From positions 59,359 through 123,358 of the forward strand of contig JAZKAU010000001.1 of NCBI GenBank assembly GCA_040388985.1: a stretch of DNA of 64,000 bases. The letters are read 5' to 3'. Position 1 is the stretch's first letter, and each line of letters opens with the position of its first letter. Shown piece after piece: positions 44,910-53,164 of the stretch. The notes under the pieces were generated by a model. It ran no database searches and had not been told where the DNA came from. It saw nothing but the letters and a program-made list of their open reading frames with translations. Source of the stretch: Patescibacteria group bacterium. Its GTDB lineage: Bacteria; Patescibacteriota; Minisyncoccia; Phycocordibacterales; Phycocordibacteraceae. Made by a program: the position numbers and the translations under genes.

Positions 44910-45149
44910 ACAAATCAGTATAGCTTAAATTGGTTAACTCCGAGGGTACGCGAAGCTTGCTCTCGTTCGTCTCCACAGAAAAGAAAATGCCCCTCAGAAG
45001 GGGCGCTTTCTTATCGTTCCAGTTCCCCGAACATCACGTTAATAACATACCGCTCACATTTAATAGGGAATACATGAGTGGGGTGGCTCAACAGCTGTGT
45101 TAGATTAGGCTTATGGAAAGGTTTTCTGAAGTATAATGAGCAAACCCAC

Positions 45150-45755
45150 ATGAACTCTGTCTCAACATTCATCTTTGATTGTTTCGGTGTGATCTGTCAC
45201 CCTGCCGTACACGGCTGGTATGAAGAAAATAGATTAAGGCAAGGATATTCTGATGAACATTTACCGGCAATTTTAGAACAGTTTGACCTCGGAAAGCTAT
45301 CTGAAGATGAACTTGTTGATTACTTCCTGACATACGAGGGAATTAATTCCACAAAAGAAAAGATTCGTGAGGAGATAGATAGCCACTTGGGTTTAGATAC
45401 TGAATTAGCTTCGACTATTAAGAAGCTAAAAGAAAGTGGTTTCAAGACAGCTCTACTATCAAATGGTAACGAGTCTTTCTTTGAGAGAAAGGTCTATCAA
45501 GAATATCCTCAATTCAAGGATCTATTTGATGAAATTGTCATTTCTTCTTCAGTCGGAATGGTAAAGCCTAACGCTGATATCTATCTGCACACTCTCCAAA
45601 TAGTAGGGTCAAGACCTGAAGAATCATTATTTATTGATGACCGTAAGGTAAATGTAGACGCCGCAACTATGCTCGGTATGAATGGCTATGTATATACGAC
45701 AAGTTCTGCTTTCTCTGACTATTTGAAAGATGTGGGTGTTAGTCTTGGGCGGTAG
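45150..45755 (+). CDS. HAD-superfamily hydrolase
   Basis: Motif I FIFDCFGVI (DxxG), motif IV FIDDRKVNVDAA; start set at MNSVSTF. Confidence 0.6.
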   Translation: MNSVSTFIFDCFGVICHPAVHGWYEENRLRQGYSDEHLPAILEQFDLGKLSEDELVDYFLTYEGINSTKEKIREEIDSHLGLDTELASTIKKLKESGFKTALLSNGNESFFERKVYQEYPQFKDLFDEIVISSSVGMVKPNADIYLHTLQIVGSRPEESLFIDDRKVNVDAATMLGMNGYVYTTSSAFSDYLKDVGVSLGR

Positions 45756-45909
45756 GCCCAGAAGTTATATTCGCCTCAGTCTCTGATGCAAAGCAGCCCT
45801 ATGTTATAAGGCTGTTTTGGTTTGCTCCCCCTCGTGGACAAGTTCAGAACTGCGAATTGGGTTGGTATTAAGAGCGAACTTCAGTTCAGTGGCATTCTCA
45901 GCTTCTTTC

Positions 45910-46473
45910 CTACTGCCATAAGCTCTCAGTAAATTCGGGTAGCTTTTCAGCCAAAACATCCATTTCCCGTATGCCTTGGCGCATAATGGTTGGGGTAATT
46001 TTGAGCTTACGGAACTTAATCATCCCGTCCTCCTTCTTTGTCTTTGTATCTACTCTTACATAGCCCTCTGTATCTAGAGTTTGCCATTTAGCGTGGGCTA
46101 TCTTGTTTCTCAGAGTACTAAGCGTTTCAAGCTGTTTTCTGATTGATGCTAGTTGGCTGCTCTTTAAGACCTTCTTCTTTTGAGCCCAATTAACCATCGG
46201 GAAGGCAAGGTTATAGAAAAGCTCTATTTTTGCCGATACTTCCAAATCCTTAATGATGGTATAGCCCTCGTAATGGGAACGGTCATTGATAAGGTTAGCT
46301 ATTTCTACGTCCAAGCTATGCTCCAAATTGCTAAAGCTAATCAGGAAAGAACCTATGTGGATTGCGTACTTTTCCTCTTGCGCTTCCGTTAGTTCATCGC
46401 CAGCACCGTCATATTGGTCTAGCTCCTCATACTTAACTTCAAGAGCTTTTGGTTGCTTGGCTTTAGCTTTCAT
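45910..46473 (-). CDS. HEPN-like protein (RNxxxH motif), last gene of the five-gene operon
   Basis: ...ETLSTLRNKIAHAKW... Rx4-6H HEPN signature; overlaps the upstream Zn-ribbon ORF by 11 nt. Confidence 0.45.
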   Translation of the reverse strand: MKAKAKQPKALEVKYEELDQYDGAGDELTEAQEEKYAIHIGSFLISFSNLEHSLDVEIANLINDRSHYEGYTIIKDLEVSAKIELFYNLAFPMVNWAQKKKVLKSSQLASIRKQLETLSTLRNKIAHAKWQTLDTEGYVRVDTKTKKEDGMIKFRKLKITPTIMRQGIREMDVLAEKLPEFTESLWQ

Positions 46474-46765
46474 TGCTTTTTACAACCTTTTTGGATACCG
46501 CATCAACAAACAACCTAAAAGCAGGTCTTTTCTCCTTCTCGTAAACAACCTTAACCCCAAGGGTATGACCCTTTGGACAGGAAAGCTCCTTCTTGGAAAT
46601 TGCTACGCTTGGCTCATTTATTCGGTCTACGTACATTCGGCGCAGGTTGCCAGCCCCGTCCTTCTGGTAAGAGCAAATAACGGAACTGCACTTCCTGCAC
46701 GAAATTCTCAAAAGCCGTGAATAACCTCCGCGTGCCTTCTTGTATTTGTCGTTCTTAAGCTTCAT
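46463..46765 (-). CDS. Small zinc-ribbon protein
   Basis: CRKCSSVIC ... SCPKGH (CxxC...CxxxH), 100 aa, basic. Confidence 0.4.
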   Translation of the reverse strand: MKLKNDKYKKARGGYSRLLRISCRKCSSVICSYQKDGAGNLRRMYVDRINEPSVAISKKELSCPKGHTLGVKVVYEKEKRPAFRLFVDAVSKKVVKSNES

Positions 46766-46773
46766 ATCAAAGA

Positions 46774-47154
46774 TTATCTTACGATTTGAGTATCAAACCA
46801 TTGCTCCTGAAAGTGAATAGCTGACATAATTTCATCATCAGTCATTTTAATTCCCTCAGGCACAACTACAAGCTTATCGTCGTCATTATCTTTACGATGT
46901 GCAATAGCTATACAGACACCTTTGGCACGGTTAAGAGGTTCGGCTACTCCTAAGTAATAGGCATCTAGGTCTTCACCATCAGGAGCTTTTATTCCTTCTA
47001 TAAATCCATAGTTGGCTTTATACACAAAGCCGTGTTTAGGGTGCTTAGAACCAAGAGTGCGGTCCATAACAACCTCAACCTCCTTTCCTAAGTATTCTTT
47101 TGCAAGTTCAAAGGATTTAGAGGTTTCCATATAAAAAGTTTCGTACCTGCTCAA
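46774..47154 (-). CDS. Truncated family-I inorganic pyrophosphatase-like protein
   Basis: DRTLGSKHPKHGFVYKANYGFIEGI (compare DRF..YPxNYGFIPxT), DGEDLDAYYL (compare DGDPLDVLV), DDKLVVVPEG (compare DxKLxAVP); lacks the N-terminal ~50 aa of canonical PPase. Confidence 0.5.
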   Translation of the reverse strand: MSRYETFYMETSKSFELAKEYLGKEVEVVMDRTLGSKHPKHGFVYKANYGFIEGIKAPDGEDLDAYYLGVAEPLNRAKGVCIAIAHRKDNDDDKLVVVPEGIKMTDDEIMSAIHFQEQWFDTQIVR

Positions 47155-47662
47155 TAGGTTTTATCTGCATATAGGTCTTGTGATCATCTTCAGCAGATAG
47201 TTCAGCCCTTGTAAGGGAATATCCTTCAGGGATAAAAACAGCGTCCCAGCCATAGCCACCTTCACCAGCAGGTTTCTCAGGAACCGTTCCATCCATACCT
47301 CCTTCAAAATAGCTCTCGGTCTGTCCATCAAAGTAGCCAAAGACACAACGTGCCTTTGCACCCCGTTCCTTACCGTCTAGAAGCCGACACAGGCCTTCAA
47401 GCGAAAGCTCTTCAAGAAACCACTTAATAAACGTGCCAGGCAGTCGTCCCAAAGCCGTAAATTCAAGTGCAACATCCTCAACGAGAACTGGACGCTCCAC
47501 TTGAGCATATGCTTGGCGAAGCTTGTGTTTTACAACCTCTTTCAAATCAAGGGACTGAACCTCGTCCAAATCTACCTTTACGTGTTCTATGGGATGCCCA
47601 AGTAGCTGACCGAGATAGTCAGCTTTCTTCTGGTTGCCAGTGATGAATACAACCTCTTTCAT
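47117..47662 (-). CDS. Ham1/RdgB-like non-canonical NTP pyrophosphatase (ITPase family)
   Basis: VFITGNQKKADYL (compare ATGNxGKxxE), PAGEGGYGWDAVFIPEG (compare GxGGFGYDPIFxP). Confidence 0.65.
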   Translation of the reverse strand: MKEVVFITGNQKKADYLGQLLGHPIEHVKVDLDEVQSLDLKEVVKHKLRQAYAQVERPVLVEDVALEFTALGRLPGTFIKWFLEELSLEGLCRLLDGKERGAKARCVFGYFDGQTESYFEGGMDGTVPEKPAGEGGYGWDAVFIPEGYSLTRAELSAEDDHKTYMQIKPIEQVRNFLYGNL

Positions 47663-47664
47663 AA

Positions 47665-48642
47665 TTACTTGTTGCCTACTTCCTCAAATAGGTCTGTGTC
47701 TATCTTTTCTCCCTTTAAGTACTGCTGAATGCACCAATCGCGCATCTTCACGCGCCAAGCCCAAAAGTCGGGATTGCTAGTAGGGTCTTCTTCAGAACCC
47801 TTATCCTTACCACTAGCCCATATGGTCTTAAGTACTAGAAAATCGTCAGAGTACTCACTTAACTTTGGTAAGTCATATGCAATAGCTACACTATCCAGTT
47901 CTGCTATATAACGTGCAATCTGTTCATTACTAAAGCGATAGCGAACCTTGCCTTCAGGCCACATCCTTCCAAAGAAAACATTTGTAAGTCCGTCATATCC
48001 AACGGGACCGAAGCTTGCAAGCTCAAAGTCAATAACGCCATTAGGCAGAATGTTATACGCGTTCAGGTCTGCCTGTATGTAGCCCCACGGTAATGAAAGG
48101 GAACGTTCTGAAGCACGTTCAATTGCCTCCATAAATGGCTCCCTCATCTCTTCAGAAGGTGGGTTATTTCTGATTACATTTGCAAGGGCAATCATTTGAG
48201 CCATTGCTTCCTTGTTCTGAGGAACAAAATTCTTTGGGTTGAACTGCGCCTCGCAGTATTTCTTTACCGCCTCAGTAAATGCATCAAATGTGGCATCACT
48301 TACTACGCCATTTTCTTTGGTTTCCTCAGTGAATTGGTCTGCGAAATTTCTATCACCAATGCTGCTTTCAATGAAGTAGCTTTCTCCTGTCGGAAGTACG
48401 CCTTCTGCTAGAACTTCAGGGACTGGAAAGCCGCGTTCGTGAAGGTCTCGCGTGATATTAAGCTCACCAGCAATCTCTGCTGCACTGTGTGTACGAAGGT
48501 AAGCTGTCCTATCTGTGTTTACGTAAATATCACCACCCATAAGGCGGTCTTTCAGATAGTTGTACGCTATGCCATTCACAGTTATAGCTTCTTTGCCTTT
48601 TTCCATAGTGGGTTCTGTTTGGAGCTTTTCCATTACATTCAT
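47665..48642 (-). CDS. APH/choline-kinase-like phosphotransferase (protein-kinase-like fold)
   Basis: GYIQADLNAYNILPNGVIDFELASFG (Brenner/catalytic-loop + DFE-like motifs). Confidence 0.55.
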   Translation of the reverse strand: MNVMEKLQTEPTMEKGKEAITVNGIAYNYLKDRLMGGDIYVNTDRTAYLRTHSAAEIAGELNITRDLHERGFPVPEVLAEGVLPTGESYFIESSIGDRNFADQFTEETKENGVVSDATFDAFTEAVKKYCEAQFNPKNFVPQNKEAMAQMIALANVIRNNPPSEEMREPFMEAIERASERSLSLPWGYIQADLNAYNILPNGVIDFELASFGPVGYDGLTNVFFGRMWPEGKVRYRFSNEQIARYIAELDSVAIAYDLPKLSEYSDDFLVLKTIWASGKDKGSEEDPTSNPDFWAWRVKMRDWCIQQYLKGEKIDTDLFEEVGNK

Positions 48643-48653
48643 ATTAGCTTAAA

Positions 48654-49928
48654 TTGCTAGGCATTGTAAACTATTGTAAAGCGATGGAAGACGACACATT
48701 CAACTACTTTAACGTAGATATAAATCTCCTTGCCCTGCACGTATTGCTTGAAGGGGCTTTTAGAGGACAAAGCATTTTTACCCTTGAGCGGTTCCTGAAG
48801 GGCAACTACTGGAAGATTGAAGAAATTGAGGAAGATATAAGAGACACCAACGACTACAGTTCTGTTGAAGACCTTGTAATGCATCAGGTCATAGGAATGG
48901 TTGAAGCTCTTGAACTAGGCACAGTAAAGCGAGTAAGCGTGGCTAATCTCTATGGGCTTACAGAGCAAGTTGCAAGGGAAGCTGTAGAAACTAAGGACGG
49001 TACTGAAGACGACGTTGCTTATTACAGTTCTCTCATCAGTGAGCTATACGACCTGAGGAAAAAAGAAGAGGAACAATTTAGAGAGCGACTTGATGCTGGA
49101 TTGCCTTACTCAGAGGCACGTACCAATAGGGCTGACTTTACCAAAGACGACTTTGGAAGGCATATACAAATTATTTCTGCTATATCAACTCCATTCATAG
49201 AGCTAGAGATAGATTTTGACGAACTTAAGACCCAAGAAGCCGACAAATTAATTCATGACTATATACATTCATTTTCGCAGGATGATTATATTGAAAAGAA
49301 GCCATTCTATAGGCAGAAGCGCTTCTACTTTTCAAAGCAGCTTGAGAACTTCTTTGAGTACATCCAGCGTTTTCCTGAAATAGATGGGTATGTAAACATC
49401 CCTTTCTCTGCGCTTAGTGAGCAAGGATTTGAAGTGGTAAAAGTAATGACCTACTTGGAAAGAGAAGCGCGCTTAAAGGTTAGGAACTGGGACGATATTG
49501 AGCTATGGAATGTTAAGTTTCATAAAACTCCAATTACCCTTGCTTCTTTATTGGGACAGGAAACCAAGACCGAGATTAAAGCGATAGATAAGAGCGAGAT
49601 TAAGCTGAACTTAAGTTTTTCTCCAGAGACAGCAATGATGAGCCTGACAGACCAGACGGGCACAGAATATAAAGTTAGGGTTCAAGGGCAAGTTCAAAAG
49701 GAAGTATTACGTGTGATATTCAAAAACCCCAAAGATACGTATACCGAGTGGAGTTTATACGACATTAGCGAGTTGCTTGGTGGACAGGACGTAAACGAGA
49801 CAGCCGTTAAGAACGCCATCTATCAATTCAATAAGAAGACCAAACTTCACCTCCCACAAGTAGAAAATCTCTTTGAGCTGACCAAACATTCAGCACGACT
49901 CAATCCAAAATACGTAAGTCCAGACTAA
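48654..49928 (+). CDS. Hypothetical protein, possible C-terminal winged-helix
   Basis: 424-aa ORF divergent from the kinase operon; no catalytic motif recognised. Confidence 0.35.
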   Translation: MLGIVNYCKAMEDDTFNYFNVDINLLALHVLLEGAFRGQSIFTLERFLKGNYWKIEEIEEDIRDTNDYSSVEDLVMHQVIGMVEALELGTVKRVSVANLYGLTEQVAREAVETKDGTEDDVAYYSSLISELYDLRKKEEEQFRERLDAGLPYSEARTNRADFTKDDFGRHIQIISAISTPFIELEIDFDELKTQEADKLIHDYIHSFSQDDYIEKKPFYRQKRFYFSKQLENFFEYIQRFPEIDGYVNIPFSALSEQGFEVVKVMTYLEREARLKVRNWDDIELWNVKFHKTPITLASLLGQETKTEIKAIDKSEIKLNLSFSPETAMMSLTDQTGTEYKVRVQGQVQKEVLRVIFKNPKDTYTEWSLYDISELLGGQDVNETAVKNAIYQFNKKTKLHLPQVENLFELTKHSARLNPKYVSPD

Positions 49929-49984
49929 GCAAACTTAAGTAAGGCAACAAATAACCTGTAGGGACAACCTACGGGTTGTTTCTT

Positions 49985-50149
49985 ATGCAGGAAACTATCA
50001 GCCCAGAAAAGCCAAAAGAAAGCTTCCAAATACAGAAGCTCTCACTGGAAGAGCGAGACCGCTTAGTTAGCTTCTTTGCGCTGCTTCTCAAGGTTGATAA
50101 GCGAGTAAATCCTGCACTTTACCAGATTAAGAAAACACAAAATGATTGA
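49985..50149 (+). CDS. Small protein (54 aa) translationally coupled to the Rep gene
   Basis: MQETISPEKPKESFQIQKLSLEERDRLVSFFALLLKVDKRVNPALYQIKKTQND; its stop overlaps the rep start (ATGATTGA). Confidence 0.3.
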   Translation: MQETISPEKPKESFQIQKLSLEERDRLVSFFALLLKVDKRVNPALYQIKKTQND

Positions 50150-51302
50150 TACCGTCTGTCTTCTCATACCGAAAGACAGAATTACCGTAGTTGATATGTC
50201 TCAGCGCGGAGTACCTTCTTGGAACCTGCACTCAAGGACAGACCAATACGATAAATACGTAAAGAACCCTTCAAAACGGGACTTGGATAGTGGGCAGTAC
50301 TTCCCGCGTCTAACTGGCTACAAGCGCAAAAGCTTTGCCCAAGAAGCAAATGTACGGATAGAGTTTTCAGCTCCAAAGCTGCTCTTCCTGAACAATCTTG
50401 ACGAGCTTACGGATAAGGACTTTCCACGGCTCATTGAGACACTTCAAGACCGACTTATGACTATGGGAATTGTTGTATCAAAACCAGTGTTGGCAAATGC
50501 TTCTGTAAGCTCAGTGCACTTCTCAAAGAATATCTTGCTTCAAGACGGTTATACGTCTAACCACCTCATTTCTGAGATGAACAAGATAGACCTTAGGAAG
50601 AGCTTTGATTTTGCACGGACTAGGTACATCAATGACGGTCAAAGCTTGTACGCTCATACCACCGCACATCAGCTAGTTATCTACGACAAAGTAGCTGACT
50701 TGGGCAAGGACAAGAAACGAGCGATAGACAAAGAGCAGACACCTTACCAGCGGAACCTGTTTGGCGAGTTGCTGAAGGATAAAGACGTTAAAGAGATTAT
50801 CCGCTTTGAGGTACGTCTGAACCATAAGCAGAAGCTCAATAAGCTCTTGGAGCAGTTAGGGTACGACAAGAACCCGACCTTCAAGCAGGTATTCCGAAGT
50901 GATGTGAGCAAAGCAGTAGTTATGGACTACTGGAAGAAGTTGATTAAGGAGCGGAACCTAGGACTGTTTTCTATCGCCATTAGCATTAAAGACATATTGA
51001 GGACGTTGTTTATGGCAGACAAAACCCTGAAGCCGAAACAGGCAATCTATCTGCTGGGTCTCTTTATGCTTGCACGTGATGAGAACGGAATGCGACAGCT
51101 AAGAAGTATCGTCTCAAAAAGGTCTCACGATAGAACGTGGTATCGGATAGCAAAGGATATGCAGAACGCCAGTGCACTTATTACTAAGAACAAGCTTAGG
51201 GACTGGGTCTCACAGCTTGATAAAGGTTTGGACGATTATCAGCCGTATAGGGTATCAAGAGATGAAGAAAACAAATCAGACAAAGGCAAGAAAGCTTCTT
51301 AA
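50142..51302 (+). CDS. Replication initiation protein, Rep_trans-like
   Basis: 386 aa; HQLVIYDK... and IIRFEVRL... segments resemble Rep_trans RIE/YDK motifs; element context. Confidence 0.45.
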   Translation: MIDTVCLLIPKDRITVVDMSQRGVPSWNLHSRTDQYDKYVKNPSKRDLDSGQYFPRLTGYKRKSFAQEANVRIEFSAPKLLFLNNLDELTDKDFPRLIETLQDRLMTMGIVVSKPVLANASVSSVHFSKNILLQDGYTSNHLISEMNKIDLRKSFDFARTRYINDGQSLYAHTTAHQLVIYDKVADLGKDKKRAIDKEQTPYQRNLFGELLKDKDVKEIIRFEVRLNHKQKLNKLLEQLGYDKNPTFKQVFRSDVSKAVVMDYWKKLIKERNLGLFSIAISIKDILRTLFMADKTLKPKQAIYLLGLFMLARDENGMRQLRSIVSKRSHDRTWYRIAKDMQNASALITKNKLRDWVSQLDKGLDDYQPYRVSRDEENKSDKGKKAS

Positions 51303-51439
51303 ACGGAACTTCTTTATGGAAGCTCTCGTAGTGGAGTTGGATGCTGAAAAGAAGTGGAAGAGGGCAAAGAAAGCACAGAAGAAAGGACGGACGCTGTCCA
51401 CTTAGTAGGTTTGTTATGTAAAGAATTGTAAAGTAATAT

Positions 51440-51619
51440 ATGACTATGCAAAAAGAGTTTTACACGGCGCAGGAGCTAGCCGATAAGCTTCAAGTTAATG
51501 TTATGACTATCTACCGCTATATTGGCGCAGGTAAGCTTAAGGCGCATAAAATTGGAAAGTCGTTCCGTATCCCAAGGGCTACTTTTGAGAAGTTCCTTGA
51601 AGCCACTAAAACTAAGTAG
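51440..51619 (+). CDS. xis: Excisionase-family HTH DNA-binding protein (59 aa)
   Basis: YTAQELADKLQVNVMTIYRYIGAGKLKAHKIGKSFRIPRATFEKFLE matches the excisionase-family DNA-binding domain pattern; not in the track (<60 aa). Confidence 0.6.
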   Translation: MTMQKEFYTAQELADKLQVNVMTIYRYIGAGKLKAHKIGKSFRIPRATFEKFLEATKTK

Positions 51620-51622
51620 CTT

Positions 51623-52096
51623 ATGAAAACACTTACAGAATTGAACAGCAAATGGTGGTACCGACTACTGAAGGTACTCTATATAATCCTAGCTCTGATT
51701 ATTCTAGGAGTATCTATAGCACTTATAGTCGTATCAAATGCGCCAGAGTTTGATAACAAAGCATCGTATGTGCAATGTGATGATGGACGTACTTTTCCTG
51801 TAGATAAAATAGGGATGTATAGCGATTTTGTTGATAGCTATAACGATAGAAACTTCCGCACGTGGTGTGCAACCACTCTAGTAGAAGAAAACGGTGTACA
51901 AAAACTGAAGCCAATAAATGGGTTCGTGCCAGACGAAAAGAACTTTACTTTTGTGGCTAAAGAAACTGCACGCAACTGGATGGGCACTATAGGGTATTCG
52001 GTTATTGCTCTTGTTGTAGTGCTACTACTATCCGAGCTTCTTAGGAGGATGTTCTACTACATAACTCTGGGTTCCATACGTCCTAAACGGCAATGA
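51623..52096 (+). CDS. Membrane protein, unknown function
   Basis: 157 aa, N- and C-terminal TM helices. Confidence 0.35.
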   Translation: MKTLTELNSKWWYRLLKVLYIILALIILGVSIALIVVSNAPEFDNKASYVQCDDGRTFPVDKIGMYSDFVDSYNDRNFRTWCATTLVEENGVQKLKPINGFVPDEKNFTFVAKETARNWMGTIGYSVIALVVVLLLSELLRRMFYYITLGSIRPKRQ

Positions 52097-52907
52097 AAGC
52101 AGTAAATGTCTCAAGAGTATCAACGGAAGAACAAAAAGAAGCTGGTAATTCGCTACCCGCTCAGTTTGAGCGCATAGACAGCTACTGCAAGAATAAGTCC
52201 TTTGATGTAATTGAGACATTTAGCTTTGACGAAAGTGCTTATAAAGAGAAGCGAGACGAATTTGATAAGCTCCTTGAATTTGTTCAAGAAGCCGCAAAGA
52301 AGGAAAAGATAGCGGTTTGCTTTGATAAGGTAGACCGTTTGTCTAGGAGTGTCTTTGACACTCGCGTCGCCACTCTCTATGAAATGGCTGTTGCTGACAG
52401 GATAGAACTGCACTTCGTTTCAGAAGGACAGGTCATCAATAACAAAATGTCAGCCGTTGAGAAGTTTCAGTTCGGAATGAGCTTAGGTCTAGCAAAGTAT
52501 TACTCGGACGCGATTGGCGATAACGTCAGACGTGCCTTTGAGCAAAAGCGCAGGAATGGAGAATTACTAAGGACATATATGACAAAAAGCATCAGGACTA
52601 CCACGACCAGCTTCAGGTCTTGGAAATTGAAATGTCAGAACACAGGAAAGCAGATTATGACTACCAAACCACGGTAGCTACAGTGCTTTCTGTCGCTCGC
52701 AGGGCAAAGCAAATCTTTGAAAGTTCTGAAGCTGCAGAAAAACGAGCGTTCCTGAACTACCTACTTCAGAACCCGAGTGTAAACGGAAAAAAGCTATATT
52801 TTTCAATAGCTTCTCCGTTCAATCTAGTCCTAGAACTAGCTGATAACCCTAACTGGCTCCGCGGGCAGGATTCGAACCTGCGACCAAGTCGTTACACATT
52901 ATCCTAA
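52093..52907 (+). pseudogene. Serine recombinase (resolvase catalytic domain) with a frameshift near 52545-52560; the downstream frame reads into tRNA-Asn
   Basis: VSRVSTEEQ catalytic Ser motif, DRLSRS; ORF 52093..52677 and ORF 52620..52907 are in different frames and rejoin as ...FEQKRRNGEW/RITKD...; C-terminal ...LRGQDSNLRPS is a translation of the tRNA T-arm. Confidence 0.55.
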
Positions 52908-53164
52908 AGTTTCCTAAAGGGGTGGACTATATCATCATCGGGTCTCGATGCGAGGCGCTTCCGATCCGCCAACTGGCGGACAGTACTCCCTTACGGGATA
53001 GTCTCTACACCTTCCAAGTCTTATCGCTAGATAAATCTTGGCTTGGCTCGGGATTGCCCTTGCTTTCGCAATAGGGTTTCCCCGAATTCACCTCGTTTGC
53101 AACCAGGATTCCTCCTGGAGGCTGCCATTGACAGCGACCTGCTCTACCACTGAGCTACCGCGGA
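52854..53164 (-). tRNA. tRNA-Asn (GUU) interrupted by a 236-nt group I intron between anticodon-loop positions 35 and 36; CCA encoded
   Basis: 5' exon TCCGCGGTAGCTCAGTGGTAGAGCAGGTCGCTGT (53164-53131), 3' exon TAACGACTTGGTCGCAGGTTCGAATCCTGCCCGCGGAGCCA (52894-52854); U1:A72 and G73 as in bacterial tRNA-Asn; loop CUGUUAA. Confidence 0.7.
52895..53130 (-). ncRNA. Group I intron (IC3-like, tRNA-intron type)
   Basis: P1: exon GCUGU pairs with intron GCAGC (U.G at the splice site); core GGUGAAUUCGGGGAAACCCUA...CCCGAGCCAAGCC...AAGGUGUAGAGACUA closely resembles Azoarcus tRNA-Ile and cyanobacterial tRNA-Leu introns; ends in omega-G. Confidence 0.7.

Follow-up and report, generated by a model that had tools for sequence, protein, structure and literature searches.

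The window analyzed here is a stretch of 64,000 nucleotides (nt) of contig JAZKAU010000001.1 from a Patescibacteria group bacterium. In it, a gene for a 187-residue protein with an RNxxxH motif overlaps a gene for a small protein with a CxxC...CxxxH motif, which we refer to as the Zn protein (Table 1). The original prediction read the two as a toxin-antitoxin-like pair, in which a HEPN ribonuclease (RNase) would be neutralized by a zinc ribbon instead of the usual MNT partner. Both open reading frames (ORFs), their 11-nt overlap, and the strings LRNKIAHAKW and CxxC...CxxxH are real, as the ORF list and the sequence confirm, and so, very probably, is the HEPN-like nature of the larger protein; the pairing did not survive comparison with other genomes. 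The reading that we favor, and consider reasonably probable, is that the 187-residue protein is encoded by a stand-alone HEPN-type RNase gene of an integrative element of ~7 kb and is not half of a two-gene module.

The 187-residue ORF contains TLRNKIAHAKWQ, i.e., L-R122-N-K-I-A-H127-A-K-W (R122, N123, H127). We estimate that one R-x4-6-H string would be expected by chance about 0.5 times per protein of such size; however, the RNxxxH motif is conserved across the HEPN-like family, and is therefore likely to be functional rather than fortuitous. Residues R122, N123, A126, H127, and W130 are invariant in an alignment of 44 homologs with 45-89% identity (A1). A broader alignment of 60 members that reaches down to 20-30% identity (A3) still has N123, H127, and W130 in every sequence and R122 in at least 90% of them. 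A HMMER scan of 1.84 billion representative proteins retrieved 489 clusters of this family at E <= 0.001; nearly all are 170-200 residues long. The named homologs of both the HEPN-like protein and the Zn protein are from Paceibacteria-type candidate phyla.

Members of the HEPN superfamily share an all-alpha, four-helix up-and-down core, with the Rx4-6H motif placed where helix 3 ends or where the loop between helices 3 and 4 begins; they form dimers with a composite Rx4-6H site that cleaves RNA independently of metal (Anantharaman et al. 2013, PMC3710099). The AlphaFold2 model of the 187-residue protein is confident, with a predicted local distance difference test score (pLDDT) of 88.3 and a predicted template modeling score of 0.81, and it contains helices at residues 30-62, 79-95, 101-127, and 161-186 and a beta-hairpin at 138-158. 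The RNxxxH motif forms the C-terminal end of helix 101-127, the third long helix, and is followed by the last helix. This position matches the published definition of the motif and supports the HEPN reading. The residue directly after R122 is polar (N123), which is typical of HEPN motifs, where N, D, or H usually follows the R.

Profile searches point in the same direction, although every match that the family has in Pfam lies below the gathering threshold. The window protein matched HEPN_RiboL-PSP, Abi_2, HEPN_Cthe2314, and HEPN_Swt1 in Pfam and Cas13c, Csx1, and PD-T4-2_B in PADLOC (E 1e-3 to 7e-3), all sub-threshold and all aligned around the motif. Sub-threshold Pfam matches among the 44 members were to RiboL-PSP-HEPN (PF18735) in 19, Cthe_2314 (PF18730) in nine, Swt1 (PF18731) in four, and Abi_2 (PF07751) in four, with single members matching MAE_28990 (PF18737; E 0.0014) and Abi_C (PF14355). 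Distant family members showed the same pattern of HEPN-type matches around the motif. The consensus of the hidden Markov model (HMM) built from the broad alignment aligned over residues 4-174 to positions 3-189 of the 191 positions of PF18735 (E 3.1e-5, 24.4 bits; cut-off, 28.4), with Swt1, Abi_2, and Abi_C ranking next. Two members are fusions of the conflict-system kind: P0184 combines Mrr_N with the HEPN-like domain, and P0201 combines HEPN_Toprim_N, Schlafen AlbA_2, and the HEPN-like domain. Together, these sequence and profile comparisons suggest an unannotated HEPN clade, whose closest Pfam family is RiboL-PSP-HEPN of the Abi2/Swt1 branch. In a further locus (L100 6723-9694), a HEPN homolog with 61% identity lies between a HEPN_Toprim_N/TOPRIM protein (420 residues) and a Panacea-domain protein (176 residues); this operon and the two fusions constitute a separate, defence-island-like setting for the HEPN-like domain.

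Comparison with known systems places the family near, but not within, several of them. RiboL-PSP-HEPN, described as distantly related to AbiD/AbiF, shares with it an R-N-x3-H motif that lies close to where helix 3 ends and has one helix after it, a length of ~190 residues aligned in full, bacterial occurrence, and links to conflict systems. RiboL-PSP-HEPN is found fused to an L-PSP endoribonuclease and in a ParB operon (PMC3710099), whereas the HEPN-like family has neither context, scores below the PF18735 cut-off, has an N-terminal strand and, behind the motif, an inserted beta-hairpin, and is found mostly in Patescibacteria. The single-gene abortive infection proteins AbiD/AbiF (Abi_2) are likewise solo HEPN genes on mobile elements with no conserved protein antitoxin, and the weak profile matches of our family to them end at the motif; however, these matches reach only E ~0.01-0.04, and Abi_2 proteins are larger, with the motif near the C terminus. 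HepT/MntA, a type II/VII toxin-antitoxin system of the HEPN/MNT kind, also comprises a small HEPN protein with an Rx4-6H motif, but an MNT gene was found in none of the HEPN-like loci, there is no conserved neighbor, and no match to the HepT-type HEPN families of Pfam was obtained. Finally, P0201 has the architecture listed for the MAE_18760 HEPN family, namely HEPN_Toprim_N, Schlafen AlbA_2, and HEPN (PMC3710099), and one member matches PF18737 (MAE_28990/MAE_18760-like), whereas this match is limited to one of 44 (or of 60) members and most members are single-domain proteins.

The idea of a HEPN toxin with the overlapping Zn protein as its cognate antitoxin, a type II-like pair in which a Zn domain replaces MNT, draws on the gene overlap (the HEPN ATG is at 46473 and the last base of the Zn-protein stop codon is at 46463, hence 11 nt), on the co-transcription predicted from sequence, on the small size and basic character of the Zn protein, and on a second contig in which the two genes are again adjacent but DUF218 lies upstream. 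Comparative genomics largely refutes it. We collected 80 genome loci of the Zn protein with 5-kb flanks (L001-L080) and 22 loci of HEPN homologs and searched them with tblastn and then with family HMMs on six-frame translations. At this profile sensitivity, the HEPN family was found in none of the 80 independent Zn-protein loci (within 5 kb), and the Zn protein in none of the 22 HEPN loci. Outside the window, the adjacency was seen only in the second contig, a near-identical Joint Genome Institute contig of 2266 bp. There, the Zn protein shows 92% identity, and HEPN shows 99% over 121 residues but breaks off at 123 residues, just before RNxxxH; this truncated gene is probably an inactivated copy.

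The overlap itself is not specific to the Zn protein. In locus L098, whose HEPN protein is 89% identical to that of the window, the upstream gene is an ortholog of the window APH kinase (83% identical up to the very C terminus); it ends in VGNES and a stop codon and overlaps the start of HEPN by the same 11 nt. A pair of APH genes lies upstream in L096 (HEPN 80% identical), and there, too, the overlap is 11 nt. The junction sequence GCAATGA(A/T)A(G/A)CTAA is common to the window, L098, and L096. Because these junctions share their sequence despite different upstream genes, we attribute the overlap to the 5' end of HEPN (GCAATGAAAGCTAA), which ends any gene placed before it. Relative to L098, the window has an extra 1.2-kb block (Ham1, inorganic pyrophosphatase [PPase]-like protein, and Zn protein) between the APH and HEPN genes, with ATGAAAG at both borders; this block appears to be a lineage-specific insertion. 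Elsewhere, the genes upstream of HEPN are His_Phos_1, a methyltransferase, HEPN_Toprim_N, or the divergent orf424, and downstream there is nothing, NUDIX, a 214-residue protein, a 256-residue protein, or Panacea. A search for a conserved HEPN partner among these upstream and downstream genes found that they differ by locus and are mutually unrelated. Compared with the HEPN clade, the Zn-protein family is also much larger and by far the better conserved, and its usual neighbors are house-cleaning enzymes such as His_Phos_1, NUDIX, Maf, TatD, and Ham1. We therefore regard the pairing as very improbable; to judge from these comparisons, the Zn protein would be an unrelated passenger gene and not the antitoxin of the HEPN-like protein.

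The genomic context that does recur with the HEPN gene is an integrative element. In the window it appears to span about 7.04 kb (45824-52860), with its recombinase gene split by integration and HEPN as the first gene inside attL. These boundaries follow from a junction shared by both ends: GCTCC, with the recombinase reading frame broken after WL and resumed at P, occurs at 45824-45828 and at 52856-52860 (attR), the latter in the 3' acceptor end of a tRNA gene, and the WL/P and GCTCC junction is the same in all copies. All five genes of the HEPN operon, the Zn protein included, lie inside. The element has an integrase, an excisionase-like HTH protein, and a specific tRNA 3'-end site, as expected of a large-serine-recombinase integrative element. 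Its recombinase reads NPNWL up to the junction and then RGQDSNLRPSRYTLS and a stop codon, running antisense into the tRNA 3' end. Homologous recombinases have 520-577 residues and a Resolvase, Recombinase, and Zn_ribbon_recom architecture, and the same gene order with such full-length recombinases flanks the HEPN homologs in L083, L091-L093, L096, L097, and L099.

At attL, the HEPN gene is followed directly on its 3' side by an 87-nt segment of the opposite strand, which occupies the same place in 15 HEPN loci (L081-L099); the window copy was identified by tblastn with the C terminus of the second recombinase gene in L093. In 17 of 17 copies it is an intact 29-codon frame, LP[LI]VD.FRT.NW..IK..L.FSGI..LFP, with a variability of 0.205/0.122/0.336 at the three codon positions and stop codons just upstream of the frame. 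In L081, the same tail is still part of a 551-residue recombinase, which reads RPKWL and, across the junction, PIVDKFRT, and ends in the tail with its stop codon 9 nt from that of HEPN. The conservation of the segment is thus explained by coding constraint on the opposite strand, i.e., by the recombinase C terminus. Since the tail is left at attL upon integration, attP would lie inside the recombinase gene. Integrases of the SSV1 type, from archaeal viruses, likewise carry attP within the integrase gene. AbiF-type HEPN toxins have RNA antitoxins, and the segment was also considered as an RNA partner of HEPN; this was rejected, as RNAalifold gave -2 kcal/mol, five pairs, and no covariation, with a coding frame instead. 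A pattern scan of viral contigs for the segment found nothing, and the HEPN-like family had just two distant matches in IMG/VR.

Recombinase tails also occur elsewhere. Four lie 0.7-1 kb apart in L017 (1582-4126), where three of the four follow a different gene each (polysaccharide deacetylase, a 211-residue protein, and a membrane protein); they make up a cassette-like array beside a Zn-protein gene. Another copy is at L044 4816-4880. In the window, 45023-45121 (+) matches the post-junction C terminus of the L096 recombinase (residues 500-531, 73% identity); this stretch is just upstream of a HAD hydrolase gene (45078..45755) and may be a remnant of an older integration.

How the HEPN-like protein would work can be outlined from its superfamily. 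From what is known of HEPN proteins (PMC3710099), we infer dimerization, RNase activity, toxicity, and a defence role: the protein would dimerize, with two R-N-x3-H motifs forming one metal-independent RNase site, and would serve the element as a single-gene, Abi-like defence or exclusion nuclease, latent until some trigger and without a dedicated neighbor as antidote. The assignment to a solo RNase is based on membership of the HEPN family together with the lack of a conserved protein neighbor. A more far-reaching version is tentative and on balance doubtful. According to it, a family of integrative elements of Patescibacteria would carry the HEPN gene as part of their core and not as casual cargo. 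Integration would split the recombinase gene at an attP ~30 codons before its stop codon, so that HEPN and the 29-codon tail always stay together at attL, and successive integrations would build gene-plus-tail arrays such as that in L017 with its four tails. Through the convergent, nearly overlapping HEPN and recombinase genes, RNase expression would then depend on whether the element is integrated or excised, and element topology, in place of an antitoxin, would control HEPN as a solo toxin.

Several observations weigh against a HEPN-type RNase gene of a mobile element. Structure prediction gave a mixed picture of the fold: the motif is at the end of helix 3, as it should be, but a Foldseek search of the model against PDB found no HEPN structure (best E 0.65), and one against BFVD found only one unnamed protein (E 5e-3). 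The beta-hairpin between the motif and the last helix is atypical for HEPN, and all Pfam matches are, as said, sub-threshold. With regard to the element, the window recombinase keeps only residues 1-155 and 402-500 of its L096 homolog, 156-401 being lost (tblastn with full-length recombinases), and this copy is probably immobile as a result; in L090, L101, and L102, HEPN homologs are far from any element gene. The element association of the HEPN gene is therefore frequent, not obligatory. When A1 and A3 were run as profiles against PDB sequences, only chance matches came up, and PHROGs, NCBIfam, and PADLOC gave nothing significant for the HEPN-like protein, the Zn protein, orf424, or the 386-residue protein of the element. 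On the one hand, the lack of significant structural matches and of sequence matches to solved HEPN structures, as well as the low Pfam scores, would suit a convergent likeness, i.e., another helical fold with a conserved RNxxxH patch, such as a DNA- or protein-binding factor of the element. On the other hand, independent HEPN profiles recur and no other coherent superfamily does, the PF18735 alignment is full length, the motif position fits the HEPN definition, and the MAE_18760 HEPN family is listed with the same domain architectures. We consider convergence improbable and membership of the 187-residue protein in the HEPN superfamily probable.

If the protein is a HEPN RNase, its role may still differ from that of a solo defence nuclease. 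It might be an addiction toxin that stabilizes the element by post-segregational killing, with antisense transcription from the recombinase gene or its tail, or a regulator such as orf424, as the antidote. This would agree with the tight linkage of the HEPN gene to the recombinase 3' end in the 15 loci, with the 9-nt spacing of the two stop codons in L081, and with orf424, which has a weak AbiEi-like match and is adjacent and divergent in six element loci. However, the 87-nt segment has no conserved RNA structure or covariation, its conservation being due to opposite-strand coding; orf424 is replaced by an unrelated 261-residue protein in L091/L092 and is absent in L090, L100, and L101; and the HEPN gene also persists without element genes. 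We consider this reading unlikely. We give the same low standing to a non-toxic, HEPN-derived factor for RNA processing or nucleotide binding, working with the kinase, Ham1, and PPase-like proteins of the operon, with the Zn protein as another nucleic-acid-binding component. Some HEPN families, e.g., Las1 and Swt1, do act in RNA processing (PMC3710099), HEPN homologs often run in the same direction as His_Phos_1, DHH, PPase, NUDIX, or methyltransferase genes, and the Zn protein has the same kind of neighbors; yet such neighbors are individually not conserved with either gene, small hydrolase genes generally fill the accessory regions of these genomes, and the Mrr_N, HEPN_Toprim_N, and AlbA_2 fusions, the Panacea neighbor, and the mobile-element context point to conflict systems. 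The solo RNase of the element thus remains the reading that we prefer.

The Zn protein is best considered in its own right. It has a pI of 10.06 and 25 lysine and arginine residues, and 37 of about 100 columns, including C23, C26, C31, C63, and H67, are invariant in an alignment of 32 homologs (A2). More than 423 homologs at about 60-80% identity were found, none with a Pfam domain, and this level of identity holds between metagenome-assembled genomes (MAGs) labeled as different candidate phyla. The distribution is patchy, with 174 matches confirmed by strict patterns in 185,579 species genomes, and at times the protein occurs twice in one MAG (L003 and L022). Its AlphaFold2 model is all-beta, with 7-8 strands (seven with at least three residues) and a pLDDT of 78.6, and is of medium confidence, two of five models being above pLDDT 70. 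The top Foldseek match in PDB is the Yippee domain of Mis18 (7sfz; E 0.015, probability 1.0, template modeling score 0.50-0.54), followed by the C-terminal domains of RIG-I and DRH-3, YPEL5, and the CULT domain of cereblon, all at E >= 0.015. All of these top matches are beta-tent proteins, a fold built from a pair of four-stranded beta-meanders that a zinc ion, held by two ligand pairs, pins together (PMC4287342). The model thus suggests a beta-tent-like fold of the Yippee/Mis18/CULT/RIG-I C-terminal domain type. In common with these proteins, the Zn protein has ~100 residues, two beta-meanders in its model, and a CxxC plus a second ligand pair ~40 residues further on; in contrast to them, its second pair is C-x3-H and not CxxC, and it is bacterial, very basic, and devoid of sequence matches in Pfam, NCBIfam, or PDB, with weak structural E-values. 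A classical zinc ribbon, i.e., a small three-stranded ribbon of about 30-40 residues made by two beta-hairpin knuckles, was rejected, with the ligand pairs 37 residues apart in a beta domain of ~85 residues. No zinc-ribbon structure or family was matched in searches of Pfam and PDB (by Foldseek), and a profile search of PDB sequences gave chance matches only. Thus, of the zinc-ribbon label, the CxxC...CxxxH motif stands and is invariant, whereas the fold is not that of a classical ribbon but probably beta-tent-like.

A conserved neighbor of the Zn protein was sought, and the largest neighbor cluster was present in five of 80 loci. The 44 close downstream genes encode mostly small nucleotide or phosphate hydrolases: His_Phos_1 (four), NUDIX (three), TatD, Maf, and ASCH (two each), and HAD, a nucleoside 2-deoxyribosyltransferase, and a pyrophosphatase as single neighbors. 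Ham1 is nearby in four loci, and the Ham1-PPase-Zn block of the window is a typical neighborhood for the Zn protein. The possibility that it is a promiscuous antitoxin with varied downstream toxins was rejected, as no toxin families occur among the 44 genes. One 168-residue gene directly downstream of the Zn protein (L017 5292-5798, +) holds WAFRCAALHQG, an R-x4-H string that is probably coincidental; its product has no Pfam match at E <= 0.1 and none to the HEPN family HMM. The Zn protein is probably an independent, strongly conserved nucleic-acid or nucleotide binder.

Within the element, the APH, Ham1, PPase-like, Zn-protein, and HEPN genes overlap or are separated by at most 8 nt, and within 45600-48800 the minus strand has a single sigma-70-like site, at 48670-48641, upstream of APH. 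On these grounds, the five genes are predicted to form an operon that starts at the divergent promoter of the element. A similar TTTAC-repeat region, recognized by eye in sequence comparison, directly precedes the HEPN gene in L093 and L083. A direct repeat, TGTAAA-N5-TGTAAAG (D5), is found at 48665-48692 in the divergent promoter region and at 51417-51444, just upstream of the HTH_17 gene, and is a candidate operator for an element regulator. Homologs of orf424 adjoin the HEPN gene in L081, L083, L093, and L099 and, with kinase genes between, in L096; orf424 has no Pfam or PHROG match and a weak match to AbiEi (E 0.03). The 386-residue protein is 72-78% identical between elements.

The target of the element is a tRNA gene interrupted by a group I intron of 240 nt (Rfam RF00028, 70.1 bits, E 9.4e-16). 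ARAGORN missed the interrupted gene and recognizes a tRNA after in silico splicing, its identity depending on the splice site. Two identities come into question: Thr-UGU, which fits the rule of a U at the end of the 5' exon and a G at the end of the intron, and Asp-GUC as the alternative.

Table 1. Features of the integrative element and of its tRNA target in the window
Feature	Position	Strand	Description
attL side	45824..45912	+	GCTCC (45824-45828), then 29-codon recombinase tail (LPLVDKFRTANWVGIKSELQFSGILSFFP) in convergent orientation to HEPN, up against its stop codon
HEPN-like protein	45910..46473	-	ORF, 187 residues; RNxxxH at residues 122-127; last gene of predicted operon; att-proximal gene of the element
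Zn protein	46463..46765	-	ORF, 100 residues, basic; C23-x2-C26 and C63-x3-H67; predicted beta-tent-like; putative passenger gene
Short inorganic-pyrophosphatase-like protein	46774..47154	-	126 residues; PF00719, E 1.1e-5
Ham1/RdgB-type non-canonical NTP pyrophosphatase	47117..47662	-	181 residues; PF01725, E 2.3e-33; NCBIfam XTP/dITP diphosphatase
APH-family phosphotransferase	47665..48642	-	325 residues; PF01636, E 2.6e-8; first gene of predicted operon
Divergent promoter region	48641..48692		Between APH (-) and orf424 (+); TTTAC(A/T) direct repeats
orf424	48654..49928	+	Conserved element gene, divergent from the HEPN operon
Element core genes	49976..52096	+	57-residue ORF, 386-residue protein, HTH_17 excisionase-like protein, 157-residue ORF
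HTH_17 excisionase-like protein	51440-51619	+	Domain and PHROG searches
Large serine recombinase gene, internally deleted	52093..52907	+	Resolvase domain, E 5.5e-21; PHROG integrase match
tRNA gene interrupted by group I intron	52854..53164	-	Intron 52903-53142; exons read from sequence

In the compact genomes of Patescibacteria, gene overlap is no evidence of a toxin-antitoxin pair, and the overlap sequence here is that of the downstream gene. The Zn protein, strongly conserved, basic, predicted to be beta-tent-like, and without a family assignment, would share its fold class with Yippee and with the RNA-end sensor domain of RIG-I and merits a study of its own. The element illustrates clearly how integration into a tRNA gene can split a serine recombinase gene in Patescibacteria. 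About 490 clusters of an unannotated, probable HEPN clade can now be linked with the RiboL-PSP/Abi2 branch and with a defined context of mobile elements, which offers a way into defence or exclusion functions in a phylum with few annotated systems of this kind.

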